A DNA stretch of 64,000 nt, from assembly GCA_041645165.1 (NCBI GenBank), contig JBAZQN010000003.1:28198-92197 (forward strand), read 5' to 3'. The notes under the pieces were generated by a model that was given only the letters and a program-made list of their open reading frames with translations, did not search any database and had not been told where the DNA came from. This document shows positions 11,438 through 60,484 of the stretch, one piece after another. How positions within the stretch are numbered: position 1 is the first letter of the stretch; each line of letters begins with the position of its first letter. This stretch comes from Patescibacteria group bacterium. Lineage in GTDB: Bacteria > Patescibacteriota > Patescibacteriia > 2-02-FULL-49-11. Made by a program: the position numbers and the translations under genes.

Positions 11438-12073
11438 CTATTTTGCGTTTTTAATAAACAATCGTACCTTTCGCATATCTTTCACCCCCGGTTTAACTTC
11501 AACTCCGCCCGAGGCATCAATAATTCGCGATCGCGTAAACTTGATGCCATCATGGATATTTTCTGGTGTCAACCCGCCGGAGAGCACCACCTCATATCCC
11601 GCTTCAACAAGCTCACGCGCGAAGTTCCAGTCAGCACGCTTTCCGCTCCCGCCTGCCCCGTGCATTGGATTTTTTGCATCAACCAGCAGCACCTCAACGA
11701 CACTCGCGTAGTGCAGGTAATTTTGCCGCGTCACCGCTTTCCATATTATTACCCCTCGTTTTCGCAGCCGATTAACGTAGGCCGTTGTTTCATTCCCATG
11801 CAATTGCCAAATACTGATTCCCGATTCCTCGATTAACCTGCACAACCGTTCAAACGGCAGATTCACCACCACCCCCACCGTACGGGCAGAAAATTTTCTG
11901 CCCCTACACCTATTATTTACCGCCTCCTGTATCTCCCGAGCTTTCTCTCCCGTAACGCTTCTTGGACTCTTAGGAAATTCTATAACACAGCCTACAAAGT
12001 CCGCGCCTTGCCGCGCGATTTCCCGCGCCTGCGCGGGCAGTGTCACACCGCAAATTTTTACCTTTACGTTCAT
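11438..12073 (-). CDS. trpF: phosphoribosylanthranilate isomerase
   Basis: MNVKVKICGVT...position in trp operon between trpC and trpB; TIM-barrel PRAI signature KICGxT. Confidence 0.85.
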   Translation of the reverse strand: MNVKVKICGVTLPAQAREIARQGADFVGCVIEFPKSPRSVTGEKAREIQEAVNNRCRGRKFSARTVGVVVNLPFERLCRLIEESGISIWQLHGNETTAYVNRLRKRGVIIWKAVTRQNYLHYASVVEVLLVDAKNPMHGAGGSGKRADWNFARELVEAGYEVVLSGGLTPENIHDGIKFTRSRIIDASGGVEVKPGVKDMRKVRLFIKNAK

Positions 12074-52534: not shown

Positions 52535-52622
52535 AAAAATCCCAATGTCAAAATCCCAATGTCAAATGAAATCCCAATAACCAATATCAAATTTGACATT
52601 TGAAATTTGAATTTTGACATTA
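52535..52622. repeat. AT-rich tandem TTGACA-containing repeats (promoter-like)
   Basis: aaaatcccaatgtcaaaatcccaatgtcaaatgaaatcccaat…aaatttgacatttgaaatttgaattttgacatt upstream of dnaG; related array at 56770-56867. Confidence 0.45.
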
Positions 52623-52638: not shown

Positions 52639-54177
52639 TTATTCCCACTCGATCGTGCCCGGCGGTTTGCTGGTGAGATCATAAAGGACGCGGTTGACGC
52701 CCTCCACCTCATTGGTAATCCGCGTGGCGAGGCGTGCGAGCACGTCCTCGGGAATACGCGCCCAATCCGCGGTCATCGCATCCTCTGAGGTTACGGCGCG
52801 CACGACGATGGGATGCGCGTACGTACGCTCATCGCCCTGCACGCCCACAGAACGCACCTCCGGCAGAAACGCAGCATAATATTGCCACAATTTTAATTTT
52901 TTTGCGAGCGGGTCTAGCGTTTCGCGCACGATCGCGTCCGCCTGCGCGAGGGTCTTCAGGCGCCCTTCATCCACCGCGCCCACAATCCGCACGGCAAGGC
53001 CGGGACCGGGAAACGGCTGGCGCTCCACCACTGCGCGCGGGAGCCCCAAAATCCTTCCCACCTCCCTGACCTCATCTTTGAAGAGCATGCGCAGCGGTTC
53101 AATAAGTTTCAAATGCATGCGCGCAGGCAGCCCTCCCACGTTGTGGTGCGTTTTGATGGTGCTTGCCGTCCTGCCGCTTCCCGCCATTGCCGATTCGATC
53201 ACGTCAGGATAAAGCGTGCCTTGGACCAAAAAGGCGGGTTTTGATTTCAGCCGTTTTGCCTCTCTCTGGAACACTTCAATAAAAGTCCGTCCTATGATCT
53301 TCCTCTTCTCCTCTGGATCGCTTACCCCTTTTAATTTATGCAAAAATAATTGCGGCACGCGCACCACCTTCAAATCCGCCTTCAGCATGCGCCGCATCGC
53401 CTGCGCCACTTCTTGTTCCTCGCCCAAGCGAAGCAGGCCGTGGTTCACGAACACCGCAATAAGCCGGTGGCCGAGGGCATGGTGCACGAGCGTGGTGGCC
53501 ACCGCCGAGTCCACGCCGCCGGAAAGCGCGGCGATCGCGTATCCCTTGCCCGCCTTTGCTTTAATTTCCTCTATGGCTGACGTCACGAACGACGGCATAG
53601 ACCAATCCGGCGTGAGGCCTGCAATACGGACCAGAAAATTCTCAAGCATTTTTTTTCCAAACTGCGTATGCACGACTTCCGGATGGAATTGCACGCCCCA
53701 TATATTCTTTTCCTTATCCCCCACGAGGGCAAATGGGGAATGTGCAGTCACGCCATATGCGTGAGTGCCTTTGGGGAGCCGCACGACGGCATCGCCATGG
53801 GACATCCATACTCTCAATTGCTGAGGGAGACCGGCAGTGAATGGCGATCCGCGGACAATCTTTACGCTCGCGGGGCCGTATTCTCTCTGCTTCATCCTTA
53901 CCACTTTCCCTCCGGTGAGATAACACGTCAGCTGCTGGCCATAACATATCCCTAAAATGGGAATGCCCAGCGCAAACAATTCTTTCGGCACGCGCGGCGC
54001 TCCCTCTGTATATACTGATGAAGGCCCTCCGGAAAGAATAATCGCGTGTGCCTGCTTGAGCCTCTCAAGCGGCGAGCGATAAGACACCAGCTCCGCGGAA
54101 AATCCCAACTCGCGCACCCTACGGGCGATCAACTGGCTGTACTGCGCGCCAAAATCAATGACAAAAACTTGGGACAT
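52639..54177 (-). CDS. guaA: GMP synthase (glutamine-hydrolysing)
   Basis: N-terminal GATase (…GICYGQQL…) + ATP-PPase SGGVDSAV P-loop + C-terminal dimerisation domain ending …PGTIEWE. Confidence 0.9.
   Translation of the reverse strand: MSQVFVIDFGAQYSQLIARRVRELGFSAELVSYRSPLERLKQAHAIILSGGPSSVYTEGAPRVPKELFALGIPILGICYGQQLTCYLTGGKVVRMKQREYGPASVKIVRGSPFTAGLPQQLRVWMSHGDAVVRLPKGTHAYGVTAHSPFALVGDKEKNIWGVQFHPEVVHTQFGKKMLENFLVRIAGLTPDWSMPSFVTSAIEEIKAKAGKGYAIAALSGGVDSAVATTLVHHALGHRLIAVFVNHGLLRLGEEQEVAQAMRRMLKADLKVVRVPQLFLHKLKGVSDPEEKRKIIGRTFIEVFQREAKRLKSKPAFLVQGTLYPDVIESAMAGSGRTASTIKTHHNVGGLPARMHLKLIEPLRMLFKDEVREVGRILGLPRAVVERQPFPGPGLAVRIVGAVDEGRLKTLAQADAIVRETLDPLAKKLKLWQYYAAFLPEVRSVGVQGDERTYAHPIVVRAVTSEDAMTADWARIPEDVLARLATRITNEVEGVNRVLYDLTSKPPGTIEWE
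54133..54177. repeat. 45-bp direct repeat copy 1 (= authentic 5' end of guaA)
   Basis: ctggctgtactgcgcgccaaaatcaatgacaaaaacttgggacat identical to 55449-55493. Confidence 0.7.
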
Positions 54178-55411: not shown

Positions 55412-55448
55412 GTATTTTATGCGACTGATCGAAAAAATATAATCCAAG

Positions 55449-55493
55449 CTGGCTGTACTGCGCGCCAAAATCAATGACAAAAACTTGGGACAT
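55449..55493. repeat. 45-bp direct repeat copy 2 (duplicate of guaA start incl. ATG)
   Basis: Same 45 bp; creates a 33-codon uORF MSQVFVIDFGAQYSQLGLYFFDQSHKIHERIIF overlapping the GT start. Confidence 0.7.
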
Positions 55494-55534
55494 GGGAAAA
55501 TAATGAAAAACTCAAAATGCATAATGGTTCGACA

Positions 55535-55645: not shown

Positions 55646-56659
55646 TCACGATCTTATAAAGCTCGCCTCGAACCCGTTCTCACTGCACTTGGTCAGTTCG
55701 CTTGCGGTGAAAATTTTATTTTTCTTAAGCAATTCATACTCCTGCTTTAGGTTGGTCCCGTGCATTTCAGGGCCGTCCGTGTTGATCGTGAGACGCACGT
55801 GGTGCTCTAAAAGAGTCCGGAAAATGCGGCGCATCTCTTCCACGCTCTTGATGACGCCCACATTCAGGTTGGAGGTGGGGCAGAGCTCAAGGGTAATATT
55901 TTTTTCTGCAACCATATGCATCAATCCCGTGTCCTGCCATGCGAGAAATCCATGCCCGATCCGGTGGGGGGCGATATGTTCCACAATATATTTCATCTCT
56001 TTCACAGATCCTTCCTCGCCCGTATGGATAGTGGCTCCGAAACCAAGATCTTTTGCTTCCTGAAACAAGCTCTCGTATTCCTCAATATGGAACGCAGGGC
56101 TCTGCGGCCCTGCAAGGTCAATGCCCACGATCCCCCGATGCTGGTATTTCTTTGCTTTTTCAAAAATGATGGTATTCAGCTTCTTGGGGTATTCCCGGTC
56201 AAGCATCAGGATTAATCCCGCGCGCACCGAAGGGTATTCAAAGAGCGCATTTTCCATTCCGCGGATTGCTGCAAGAATAATGTAATCAAGATCGCGCTCT
56301 CCGCCGCGATTGCGCTTCATGGGATTGAACCGGAGCTCGTGCACGACGACGTTATTCGCGCGGTACGCGCCTCCTATGGTGCCGTGCACTGCCGGCTCGA
56401 TCGCCAAAGGGGATGATTGGATGAGCTCGGTCCAGTGATATAATTGCCGATCAACCTCCAAAAAGCGATGAAACTTTCCTTTCTCCTTAATAGTGACCAT
56501 CCGTTCGAACTCCCAATAATCCTTCGTCGGCAATTTGATCCCCTGTTCGTGCGCCAAGGTCCACAAGATTGCGGCGTCCACGGCGCCGCCGAGATGAGAG
56601 TGAAGCTCGGTTAGAGGAGGACCGGCGGGATGATTAGTAATTGAAGACTCACTTTTCAT
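55646..56659 (-). CDS. add: adenosine/adenine deaminase-family metallohydrolase
   Basis: LHSHLGG…HTGEEGS…TINTDGPEMHG metal-ligand motifs of adenosine deaminase superfamily. Confidence 0.8.
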   Translation of the reverse strand: MKSESSITNHPAGPPLTELHSHLGGAVDAAILWTLAHEQGIKLPTKDYWEFERMVTIKEKGKFHRFLEVDRQLYHWTELIQSSPLAIEPAVHGTIGGAYRANNVVVHELRFNPMKRNRGGERDLDYIILAAIRGMENALFEYPSVRAGLILMLDREYPKKLNTIIFEKAKKYQHRGIVGIDLAGPQSPAFHIEEYESLFQEAKDLGFGATIHTGEEGSVKEMKYIVEHIAPHRIGHGFLAWQDTGLMHMVAEKNITLELCPTSNLNVGVIKSVEEMRRIFRTLLEHHVRLTINTDGPEMHGTNLKQEYELLKKNKIFTASELTKCSENGFEASFIRS

Positions 56660-56769: not shown

Positions 56770-56867
56770 AACTCAAATGCCAAATTAAATTCAAAATCAC
56801 AACGCCAAAACTTTGACATTTAGGCTTTGACATTTATTTGAACTTTGAAATTTGTCATTTGAACTTA
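56770..56867. repeat. AT-rich TTGACA-containing tandem repeats
   Basis: aaaactttgacatttaggctttgacatttatttgaactttgaaatttgtcatttgaac between guaB stop and add start. Confidence 0.45.
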
Positions 56868-57941
56868 TCAATAATTTGGCGCATGCTTCGTAATAAATAC
56901 TGAATGCGGGTGGCTCTCTCTCATGCCTGCATCGGTGATGCGGATAAAGTGAGCTTTCCTCTGGAGCTCGGGAATGTTGCGCGCGCCCACATATCCCATC
57001 CCGCTTCTTAATCCTCCCACAAGCTGGGTAATTATGTCCGAAAGCGGCCCCTTGAGAGGCACCGCGCCTTCCACCCCTTCGGGTACGTATTTTTTTGACC
57101 CTTTTTGGAAATATCGATCAGCGCTTTGCCCCACGTTCATGGCTCCCAAACTTCCCATACCGCGATAGGTTTTGTACGCCACGCCTTCGATGATCACTTT
57201 TTTCCCCGGCGCTTCATCCGTACCGGCAAACAGGCTCCCCAGCATGACAGCGGACGCGCCCGCGGCAAGCGCTTTCACAATATCGCCGGAGTGCCGGATG
57301 CCCCCGTCCGCGATCACGGGAATCCCTTTTTGTTTCGCGACCCGCGCCACTTCCATGATCGCGGTCAATTGCGGCACGCCTACACCAGCGACGATCCGCG
57401 TCGTGCAAATGGAACCAGGCCCTACACCCACCTTGAAGCCGTCGGCCACGCCTAAAAATGCGCGCGCCGCTTCTGCGGTTGCCATATTGCCCACAATGAG
57501 CTTTGCCTTTATTTTTTTCTTTAATGCTTTGGCAGCGGCAACGGAAGATGGCTTGTGGATATGCGCGGAATCAAATACTATCACGTCCACGCCCGCCTTA
57601 TCAAGCGCAAGGGCCCTCTCTCTATCGCCTGGCCCTACGGCAGCGGCAACCTTATTTTTGATTTTTGATTTTTGATTTTTGATTTCGTGAATCATCTTTA
57701 CCTGCTCTTCCACGGTGCAATTGCGATGCAATACCCCCATCCCCCCCGCTTCACCTAAGGCTGCGGCGAAACGGGCGTCGGTCACGGTGTCCATTGCCGC
57801 AGAGAGCAAAGGAAGGATAAGCGGCAATCCTTTGGCCGCATATGACGAAATATCAGCCTCGCGCGGGCTGATGGCAGATTCTTGCGGAATCAGGAGAACA
57901 TCGTCAAAAGTAAGACCAAACGGAGTCTTTGAGGTTTCCAT
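56868..57941 (-). CDS. guaB: IMP dehydrogenase lacking the CBS subdomain
   Basis: [11 protein letters not shown]…SAAMDTVT…GPGSICTTR…[20 protein letters not shown]…YVPEGVEG; CBS pair replaced by short [10 protein letters not shown] linker; 357 aa. Confidence 0.8.
57655..57682. repeat. (TTTTTGA)x4 heptanucleotide tandem repeat inside guaB
   Basis: tttttgatttttgatttttgatttttga encoding [10 protein letters not shown] on minus strand. Confidence 0.8.
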
Positions 57942-58048: not shown

Positions 58049-60484
58049 TTACTCCTTCGGTTTAAGTTTCGCAAGATGCTTTTGGAGTATCGCCTGCATG
58101 GCTTCAGGGAATTCGTTCACGCTCTTCGGAATAATGCTGTCTTTACCGAAATGGTACTGCACCATCCCCGCCACCTCTGGTTCAGGCGTGATCGCCGTCC
58201 CTTCGAGAGGAGTAAACTTACGCGCTTCATCGGCCGCTTGCTTAGTCGACGCTTCCTGCGTGGTGCTATCGGTAATAAATATCATCAAAGATCCAATCCG
58301 ATCGACTTCTGCGCGTTTTCTCTGCAATATCTTCTTTAATCGCGGCACCGCCACTTCTATAGCCTCAGCATCCCGATTATCCCCGCCGAATCCTGACTTT
58401 TGACTATCCAACATCATGACGATGCGTGACTTGACCCTCCCATCGTATGGCTCATTGGCTGCCTTGATAATATACCTTTCATCGTGAGTTAAATTCTTAT
58501 CGTCGCTCGCCAGGATCTCAATATAGACATTATAGTCTTTTGCCGCTTCGCATGTTGCAATGCATGACTTAACCGCGTTCACGATGCGTTGTTGATCATT
58601 ACTATACATCGATCCGCTCACGTCAACAAGAATTTGCAACACCATTGCCGTTTCCTCAGGCGTTTCCCGGCGCCCCATGGGTTTCTCGGTGCCGGTGCCG
58701 ATGCGCTGAACGTACCGTCTCACGTCAAAACGGATTCCTCTTCTGCTCCATTCGTATTCCAGTTCATCCACCTTTGGGACAAATCTTTTAAAGATTCGCT
58801 TGAGTCTCTGGGTCGCGGAATTTACTTCGAGCCGGAGTTCATTGTATTTTTCGCGCAGGACGGGATCGTTAAAGTTATCTCTGCTTTTTTGTAACTCATG
58901 TTTTTCTTGCTCCCGCTCCGCTTGTGTTTCTTTATTTTGCTCTGCACGCTCTTTTGCTTCTCTAGCCCTCTGCTCCAGCCGCTGGTTATGCTGTTCAATC
59001 ATCTTCTTCAGAATCTTTTGGAAATGTATAGGCCAGGAAGATGGATCGTGAGGGTCGAGATTGGGATCTTCTTCGGGCTTGGTGCCGCCTTCGGAAGGTT
59101 GGCCTCTCTTGCCTTGTTGCTGTTGCTTACCGCCTTTCGCTTGACCTTGCTCTGATGGTTTACCTTCCTGCTCTCCACTCTCATCTTGATCTCTCCGATC
59201 TTGTTCACCTTCTCCGCCAGTCTTACTTGTATCATCTTTGCTACCTTGAGCACTAGCACCATCTTTCTCATCGGGAAATCCATTCCCATCTTTCGATTCA
59301 TCAGCACTTTGTGATCCTTCTTTCGATTCATCGCCTCCATCTTGTGCAGTATCTTTTTCATCACCACTATCTTTGCCGCTTCCTTGATCGTCTTTACCAT
59401 CATCTTTTTTACCATCGCTTCGATCTGCTTCCTCATCTTCTCCATTAGCTTCTTTACCACTTTGCTTACTCCGTTGATCCACGCCTTCCGTACTCTGAGA
59501 TTGATCCTCTCCCGGCTCGCCGTCCTCTCCTTCACCATCGCCTCCTCCTGACCCTTGTTGTTTCTGCTCTCTACTCTTATCAGGAAATTCATCAATGAGC
59601 CTTTTGAGCGCAGGCCAAATATGCTCAACAATGAGCTTCTCTATCTCGGGGTTTACCTTCATCGCTGGTTTTACTGCGTCACCAGTAATTTGAGCGACAA
59701 TTTGTTCAATTTTTAGATACTCCTCCCTTACCCGCGGATGGAGGTCGTCTAGACCCCACGGCTTCTCGACTCCTTTTACTTCTTTTTCATGCAACGCCCA
59801 AAGTCGCTCTAGCTTGATCATGAATTTGAACTGATCGGTGGGAGACATCTTCGCCACTCCACCCGCTTCTCCGTCAATGTTTTCCATCTCTTTACCGTGT
59901 ATCCCTTCAACGATATCGGGGATGATCATCTTGCTATTTTTTTCAAATAACTGCAAACGAGCATTCTCATGAAGAGGTCCCCCAACGAGGCGCTCCATGC
60001 GAGGATCTTCAAGACAATTGTTTAGTTCGAGAATCTCCTGCGGATCGTACCCTTCCTGCCGCGCGAGCGACTCGAATCGTTTCAAGCGGCCGTAGTCAGT
60101 CCATTCCGTATGACCTTTTTCATGGCGAATCTCTCCCAATAAAAAGTTAAGGGGAGCATCGCCGGCGATGAATCCAAACGGCGCGCCAATGATGTATTGC
60201 TTGCGTACCGGATCGTCGACGATCTCGCCTTCCAAGGTCACTCTCTTGGCAGGTACTTGAGCGCAGAAAAAGGTGTCGAGTTCGGGATCGGTGTAAATCT
60301 CGATTGCACGGTCTGGCGACTGGGAAGCGTGCTCAAGCGTGGCGAGGACATACGCCATGCGTTCAGGATTCGGCCGCGCGGCATTCTCTTGAAGCCGCTG
60401 CATGAAAGCTTGGTAACCCTCAATCATCGGGTGCTTCCCTGTCTCTGCGGGTTTATAAAAATCAAAATCTTCGTGCTTAATCAT
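58049..60484 (-). CDS. HExxH metallopeptidase-like / acidic low-complexity / C-terminal VWA-domain protein (CobT/DUF2201-like architecture)
   Basis: IRHEKGHTEWTDY HExxH; ~150-aa D/E/G/K/S-rich spacer; C-terminal VLQILVDVSGSMYS MIDAS-like DxSGS motif. Confidence 0.55.
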   Translation of the reverse strand: MIKHEDFDFYKPAETGKHPMIEGYQAFMQRLQENAARPNPERMAYVLATLEHASQSPDRAIEIYTDPELDTFFCAQVPAKRVTLEGEIVDDPVRKQYIIGAPFGFIAGDAPLNFLLGEIRHEKGHTEWTDYGRLKRFESLARQEGYDPQEILELNNCLEDPRMERLVGGPLHENARLQLFEKNSKMIIPDIVEGIHGKEMENIDGEAGGVAKMSPTDQFKFMIKLERLWALHEKEVKGVEKPWGLDDLHPRVREEYLKIEQIVAQITGDAVKPAMKVNPEIEKLIVEHIWPALKRLIDEFPDKSREQKQQGSGGGDGEGEDGEPGEDQSQSTEGVDQRSKQSGKEANGEDEEADRSDGKKDDGKDDQGSGKDSGDEKDTAQDGGDESKEGSQSADESKDGNGFPDEKDGASAQGSKDDTSKTGGEGEQDRRDQDESGEQEGKPSEQGQAKGGKQQQQGKRGQPSEGGTKPEEDPNLDPHDPSSWPIHFQKILKKMIEQHNQRLEQRAREAKERAEQNKETQAEREQEKHELQKSRDNFNDPVLREKYNELRLEVNSATQRLKRIFKRFVPKVDELEYEWSRRGIRFDVRRYVQRIGTGTEKPMGRRETPEETAMVLQILVDVSGSMYSNDQQRIVNAVKSCIATCEAAKDYNVYIEILASDDKNLTHDERYIIKAANEPYDGRVKSRIVMMLDSQKSGFGGDNRDAEAIEVAVPRLKKILQRKRAEVDRIGSLMIFITDSTTQEASTKQAADEARKFTPLEGTAITPEPEVAGMVQYHFGKDSIIPKSVNEFPEAMQAILQKHLAKLKPKE

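Follow-up and report, generated by a model that had tools for sequence, protein, structure and literature searches.

Phase variation through simple repeats is known mainly from the surface and restriction(-modification) genes of host-adapted pathogens. In NeuO of E. coli K1, carried by the prophage CUS-3, the heptanucleotide AAGACTC lies in the coding sequence and slipped-strand mispairing in it results in phase variation (PMC13001214). Between 3 and 53 copies of this unit are found (20 being the commonest number), its switching has been measured, and about two thirds of genomes are in the OFF state (PMC13001214). In this study, we have explored a guaB gene, predicted to encode an IMP dehydrogenase (IMPDH), in a window of 64 kb (the whole stretch of DNA that was analysed). 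As in NeuO, a 7-nt unit lies inside the open reading frame (ORF) and is translated, and a full-length protein is expected only at a copy number that fits the frame. The key distinction is that NeuO has a 5' tract of many copies in an accessory gene for surface modification, whereas guaB has four copies, a quarter of the way into a gene of core nucleotide metabolism. By analogy, we regard NeuO as the nearest mechanistic counterpart of the guaB tract. The contingency loci of Haemophilus, Neisseria and Campylobacter also have a non-triplet repeat in an ORF whose copy number differs between otherwise identical strains, which in guaB is the case for the related lineages L087 and L167 (see below); their tracts are usually longer than that of guaB, and the gene class and the phylum are different. 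A search of the literature found no paper with both "Patescibacteria" and "phase-variable".

The protein also has described counterparts. The Bateman module (the CBS pair) is dispensable for IMPDH catalysis and is missing from a few IMPDHs only, for example in Borrelia and Cryptosporidium (PMC10912719). Like the enzymes of Borrelia burgdorferi (1eep) and Cryptosporidium parvum (3ffs, 3khj), which it matches end to end or nearly so, the guaB product is a barrel without this module. Those are active enzymes of 400-404 aa; the guaB product has 357 aa, and its best solved match is archaeal (2cu0) and not of the Borrelia type. To our knowledge, a frameshift-prone repeat in the linker has been reported for none of the known CBS-less IMPDHs. 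Based on these comparisons, the locus would join a frameshift switch of the simple-repeat type to a known CBS-less form of the enzyme, of which it would be a shorter example than those of Borrelia and Cryptosporidium.

The guaB product and the loss of the Bateman module

The preliminary description of this DNA proposed that guaB encodes an IMPDH that has no CBS domains and has kept its catalytic motifs, and our results agree. PF00478 (IMPDH) matches residues 9-346 along profile positions 1-345 of 345 (E 3.5e-136), and the Pfam search gave no match to PF00571 (CBS) in the product. The solved structures that match it best are IMPDHs (2cu0, 7xlo, 1vrd), with CBS-less IMPDHs, both engineered and natural, among the best matches. 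When aligned with 2cu0, the IMPDH of P. horikoshii, residues 5 to about 92 correspond to chain residues 10 to about 99, and residues 97-357 to chain residues 220-481. About 120 residues of 2cu0 fall in the gap, and therefore its CBS pair has no counterpart in the guaB product; the gap is also present against 1vrd. An AlphaFold (AF2) model built on a 32-sequence alignment (mean pLDDT 77, pTM 0.81) predicts an ordinary barrel, with a helix at residues 77-89, a loop at 90-97 and a strand at 98-102. Low confidence is found mainly at the termini (1-6, 343-357), in parts of the Cys loop (175-188) and in the mobile flap (263-289). The coordinates of these features, together with those of the neighbouring genes, are given in Table 1.

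Table 1. Positions in the window of guaB, of the parts of its product discussed in the text, and of the neighbouring genes
Feature	Position	Strand	Basis
guaB, predicted IMP dehydrogenase without the Bateman module (CBS pair), 357 aa, ATG start	56868..57941	-	ORF and Pfam
Perfect tract (ATCAAAA)x4 plus a partial unit (coding strand)	57654..57685	-	TRF, repeat scan
Linker codons 87-97, end of helix alpha2 and loop	57651..57683	-	2cu0/1vrd alignment gap, AF2 model
N-terminal barrel segment, residues 1-86	57684..57941	-	Copy-number simulation
Catalytic Cys loop, residues 172-182, Cys179	57396..57428	-	Alignment A1
Arg276-Tyr277 dyad, flap, SADRYFQ	57111..57116	-	Alignment A1
Adenosine deaminase (add), directly downstream of guaB	55646..56659	-	PF00962, E 4.7e-54
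Glycosyltransferase, 437 aa, between add and guaA	54209-55522	-	EryCIII-like/GT28/UDPGT matches
guaA, GMP synthase, 512 aa, last gene of the purine cluster	52639..54177	-	ORF and DNA identity

In alignment A1 (32 sequences), C179, T180, T181 and R182 are invariant, as are D275, R276, Y277 and Q279 and the PEGVEG motif. An Arg-Tyr dyad activates water for the hydrolysis step in IMPDH (PMC10912719). Arg276-Tyr277 is taken as this IMPDH-specific water-activating dyad. GMP reductase is not known to have it. The IMPDH equivalog model TIGR01302 (NCBIfam) scores 408.9 bits in two stretches, below its cut-off of 481.5, because the CBS columns of the model (about 95-212) are unmatched; the shortfall thus comes from the architecture and not from the catalytic domain. 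The Borrelia-type IMPDH model NF005311 scores 337.8 bits against a cut-off of 779. The GMP reductase models give 153-182 bits, all below their cut-offs (NF003470, 181.8 against 397; TIGR01305, 170.3 against 492; NF003966, 173.8 against 344). The guaB product resembles GMP reductase (GuaC) in having a PF00478 barrel of about 340 aa and no CBS, and departs from it in the Arg-Tyr dyad, in its model scores (409 bits for IMPDH vs 153-182 for GMP reductase) and in the presence of guaA in its gene context. Judged by its sequence and its predicted fold, it looks like an intact IMPDH of the working type. No second guaB-like copy was found within the 64-kb window.

The absence of the CBS pair is shared by the relatives. 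From a homologue search that gave at least 8,000 protein matches, we examined the best 120 clusters, and 116 of them (329-409 aa, 57-87% identity, mostly Patescibacteria) are without PF00571. The named sources among the 116 are Uhrbacteria, Doudnabacteria, Pacebacteria and Parcubacteria, and the four clusters that carry CBS are more distant, with 73-76% query coverage. The guaB protein itself is 100% identical to MFA4872670.1, from a Patescibacteria MAG, and among the species representatives that have a genome, Candidatus Uhrbacteria bacterium RIFCSPLOWO2_02_FULL_49_11 is the closest. Since 116 of the best 120 clusters are CBS-less, the loss must be old, and these homologues suggest that the Bateman module was lost long ago in this clade of Patescibacteria, whose nearest named relatives are Candidatus Uhrbacteria. 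The CBS-less IMPDH thus appears to be the rule and not the exception among the closest homologues (the best 120 clusters, mostly Patescibacteria), and such an enzyme as the normal form bears on how the GTP/ATP balance is regulated without a Bateman module. Among the top-ranked literature matches, there was no paper linking IMPDH or the loss of its Bateman domain to the candidate phyla radiation. The linker junction aligns column for column across 32 homologues, and no other part of the protein varies as much as the linker, which is hypervariable among relatives in both length and sequence: the distance from HRNC to AVGP is 22-54 residues in the family (mode 29) and 33 in the protein of the window.

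The heptanucleotide tract and its counterparts in relatives

The linker is indeed encoded by four perfect 7-bp repeats, as the preliminary description had it (TTTTTGA x4 on the + strand, 57655-57682). TRF extends the tract slightly (4.6 copies, 100% match) and gives it a score of 64, the top score of the window. On the coding strand, the linker reads ATC AAA AAT CAA AAA TCA AAA ATC AAA AAT AAG (residues 87-97), and these codons form the end of helix alpha2 and the loop found at the site where other IMPDHs carry the CBS module. The four units span nt 259-286 of the 1074 nt of the gene. When the 64-kb window was scanned for perfect repeats (units of 2-12 nt in three or more copies, 18 nt or longer), the guaB tract was the sole match, and therefore we do not consider it a product of chance.

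Simulated alleles bear out that any slippage other than by three units shifts the frame: among 0 to 8 copies, only 1, 4 and 7 keep it (proteins of 350, 357 and 364 aa), and alleles with 0, 2, 3, 5, 6 or 8 copies meet a stop after 91-106 aa. The product of an out-of-frame allele consists of residues 1-86 and a short out-of-frame tail. With a non-triplet perfect repeat inside its ORF, guaB has one of the features by which simple-sequence-repeat (SSR) phase-variable genes are recognised. The length of the tract, 4.6 copies, is below the long-unit cut-off of PhasomeIt, which asks for at least 5 units for tetranucleotides, pentanucleotides and longer units (PMC6321876). As four copies are below the usual cut-off, slippage may be rare.

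To place the tract among its relatives, the linker DNA was compared for every lineage above 70% identity, and also for L008, L088 and L089 at 65%. The identical linker from non-repetitive DNA is not what these lineages have; the units differ from one lineage to the next, and every array starts from one shared codon, for Ile or Val, where helix alpha2 ends. L168, the closest lineage in DNA (92.2% nt identity, 71 mismatches in 982), has (GTTCAAA)x4 where the window has (ATCAAAA)x4. L004 has (GTCCAAA)x4, and L087 has four copies of an 8-nt unit, (CAAGAAAG)x4. In L005/L007, 92% identical in amino acids outside the linker, a GC-rich imperfect palindrome of 36 nt interrupts the four GTTCAAR units after the second. 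A decayed 7-nt periodicity is visible in L003 (GTGAAAG GTCAAAA GTTAAAG GTTAAAA), one unit is left in L001 and none in L006, both of which have 20-nt GC-rich palindromes in addition, and L008, L088 and L089 have short non-repetitive linkers. Perfect four-copy non-triplet arrays with differing units are thus present in four lineages (the window, L168, L004 and L087) and in both sub-clades of the group, these being a coarse split only, taken from the identity matrix and a plain NJ tree (the groupings of a Biopython bootstrap consensus tree were incoherent and poorly supported, and it was not relied on). In the 1-7 kb loci of the relatives, the same scan found the guaB-linker array as the only perfect simple repeat of each. 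Within the 64-kb window and these loci, the repeat is specific to this site and not a genome-wide habit. Our findings suggest that, in one Uhrbacteria-like sub-clade, a non-triplet microsatellite encodes the loop at the old CBS insertion site between helix alpha2 and strand beta3.

The comparison with L168 also tells how such arrays change. Of the 28 array positions, 12 are different between the two, always the same three of a unit, and the rest of the gene differs at 7.4%. When substitutions were simulated as independent events with the divergence observed, an array that is changed and yet perfect arose with P of about 1e-6 to 2e-6. The units must therefore have spread by slippage (concerted evolution), or the arrays have been re-grown from one unit. 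Steps of three units keep the frame, but units that lie in different codon phases are not homogenised by them, and therefore single-unit out-of-frame states would have been passed through and survived. It is most likely, from these alignments, that such states left descendants in at least four lineages. Homogenisation without a change in length, by double slips or by repair of slipped heteroduplexes, is a possible alternative route.

A natural frameshift allele and the readings of the tract

A frameshift allele was found in the L087 lineage, whose 90% cluster contains proteins of 107 aa (P0133) and 256 aa, both from one 8,625-nt ENA contig (L167, ERZ27254846 k141_2308900). In this contig, guaB consists of two ORFs that overlap, and the add and guaA genes behind it are intact. 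L167 and L087 align over 3,664 nt without a mismatch; the only gap measures 8 nt, exactly one CAAGAAAG unit (3 vs 4 copies), and the loss of this one unit splits guaB into the 107-aa and 256-aa ORFs. P0133 is the natural equivalent of the stub predicted for out-of-frame guaB. The gap has the appearance of slipped-strand mispairing in an otherwise identical strain, and the difference in copy number is seen in the sister lineage L087/L167, the lineage of the window being a single-member cluster. The in-frame allele of the L087 lineage is present on at least 24 contigs and the OFF allele on one; the latter may be a dead-end mutant, and an error of assembly is a less probable origin.

Based on these results, we propose with a probability of roughly 0.55 that the guaB tract is a stochastic frameshift ON/OFF switch. 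Slipped-strand mispairing at replication would add or remove 7-nt units. With four copies (also with 1 or 7) the frame would be kept, and at four copies the complete enzyme of 357 aa would result, with a surface loop rich in Lys. With 2, 3, 5 or 6 copies, translation would stop after about 91-106 residues, so that no barrel would be made and IMP would not be converted to XMP. A second slip would restore the frame, and the switch is thus probably reversible, as well as probably of low frequency. The tract would sit in a loop that tolerates almost any sequence, and the OFF state would be tolerated because OFF cells live on salvaged guanine compounds. For the tract of the window itself, we infer the variation, the switching rate, the reversibility, the viability of OFF cells and any selective benefit. 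The potential phase-variation switch of the preliminary description has thus gained the arrays of four lineages and the frameshift allele of L167, and the four copies of the tract are below conventional cut-offs. The comparative data go beyond a lone repeat: they show a non-triplet array that is dynamic and specific to one site, and a frameshift allele that occurs in nature.

If the switch exists, simple-repeat phase variation extends to the ultra-small uncultured Patescibacteria and to a central purine enzyme, and guaB is conditionally dispensable there, a direct clue to what their partners supply. For annotation, split or "pseudogene" guaB calls are to be expected in these genomes, one repeat unit away from an intact gene. 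A further step, which we find doubtful, is that in the Uhrbacteria sub-clade the old Bateman site has become a selected contingency locus, where continual slippage keeps the four-copy array perfect and guanine-nucleotide synthesis is toggled in a fraction of the cells. Such a locus would suit cells that rely on a host or a community for their nucleotides. It would be the first gene with SSR phase variation to be described from the candidate phyla radiation and, as a phase-variable gene of core nucleotide metabolism, a rarity.

A different reading, which is possible but not the one we favour, is that the tract is a tolerated microsatellite without regulatory role, a free loop accumulating A-rich slippage products and insertions while deleterious OFF alleles are purged. 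It agrees with the linker being the most variable part of the protein, with the unrelated GC-rich palindromic inserts that the linkers of L001, L006 and L007 have also received, with a copy number of 4 only, and with the single OFF contig against at least 24 ON contigs. It is also in line with the decay or disappearance of the array in several lineages, and the arrays that are lost, decayed or interrupted in L001, L006, L003 and L007 fit a neutral or mildly harmful repeat equally. However, the perfect, lineage-specific arrays of four lineages require out-of-frame intermediates that survived; were OFF lethal, those paths would be closed, and degenerate or interrupted tracts would be expected everywhere. 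Furthermore, the OFF allele of L167 was so abundant in its sample that it became the assembled consensus.

The remaining readings concern the gene or the data. Errors of assembly or sequencing as the source of the repeat or of its variants are improbable, and so is a GMP reductase in place of an IMPDH. Arrays are present at this site in independent assemblies from NCBI, JGI, ENA and Logan, and an artefact as the source of the L167 allele is unlikely because the tract (32 nt) is much shorter than the reads and, going by the contig name, shorter than the assembly k-mer (we take k141_2308900 to stand for k=141). A misassignment might be suspected from the name "guanosine monophosphate reductase" that the source gives to OGL77126.1 (P0128, the L087 orthologue), from the absence of CBS in GMP reductases as well, and from the score of 408.9 bits below the TIGR01302 cut-off. 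Nevertheless, the best GMP reductase model reaches 182 bits (cut-off 397) vs 409 for IMPDH, the Arg-Tyr dyad is present and invariant, and guaA is in the same neighbourhood; on these three grounds, the name of OGL77126.1 appears to be wrong. The preliminary description had also offered a recent deletion scar, in which the CBS module was deleted recently in this genome and the repeat is the junction. The 120 residues missing in comparison with full-length IMPDHs are the only point in its favour, but the junction is shared column for column by the 32 aligned homologues, the CBS-less state extends to many Patescibacteria lineages (116 of the best 120 clusters), and the matches that do bear CBS are the more distant ones. 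We therefore abandon this reading as extremely improbable, and a slim chance is left to explanations other than those considered here. The frameshift switch is the reading we favour.

Two ways in which OFF alleles might still yield enzyme were considered. The second ORF of L167 has a possible GTG start inside AVGP, and the first in-frame start codons to follow the tract in guaB of the window are codons 118 and 120. A split enzyme reassembling from two ORFs was dropped, the GTG start of L167 not being conserved in the window gene. Rescue by programmed ribosomal frameshifting or transcriptional slippage was also set aside, as the A runs are 5 nt only and there is no canonical X XXY YYZ in register. 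Truncated OFF products were also sought with the N-terminal 97 residues, an uninformative query that returned only distant fragments of at most 60% identity.

Neighbouring genes and minor observations

The gene order guaB-add-guaA is conserved in L001, L006 and L167. In DNA, the 5' end of guaA in the window shares 88.6-91.8% identity with the beginning of the 512-aa GATase/GMP_synt_C genes in L001 and L007. Just upstream of the glycosyltransferase gene that lies between add and guaA, a 49-nt stretch (55447-55495) is 96% identical to the first bases of L001 guaA, and from this identity it resembles the trace left by an insertion in which the 5' end of guaA was duplicated. Directly upstream of guaB, an 811-aa ORF (58049-60484, - strand) has a long acidic low-complexity middle rich in Gly, Asp, Glu, Lys and Gln, and it gave no Pfam match at E up to 0.001.

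The linkers of some relatives have 20-nt palindromes of the form GGGC-N12-GCCC, and perfect or near-perfect palindromes of this form, coding and in frame, are found at L001 3278-3297, at L006 3255-3274 and again next downstream, at 11884-11903 in the window, and at L003 1967-1986. Two of them lie in the guaB linkers of relatives and encode GANGRS there. We considered these palindromes as one mobile element and rejected the idea, their sequences being different and no identical copies being present elsewhere in the window or the loci, where they form a loose class only.

The spacers downstream of guaB (56800-56867) and of guaA (52536-52621) both contain repeated motifs of the TTTGACATTT / ATTTGAA type, within which the hexamer TTGACA is found on the + strand. 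At 52536-52566 there is a perfect AAAATCCCAATGTC x2.2 repeat, and the palindrome AATGTCAAATTTGACATT is found in a comparable spacer of L007 (6975-6992). Rfam models had no match between 52000 and 60600 at E up to 0.1. By their sequence, the spacer motifs may represent a shared regulatory or terminator-region motif. Finally, the JGI contig of L168 (Ga0394674_39274) starts at positions 1-12 with CTCTTCCGATCT, which we take to be the end of an Illumina adapter, and its first bases are probably adapter contamination.
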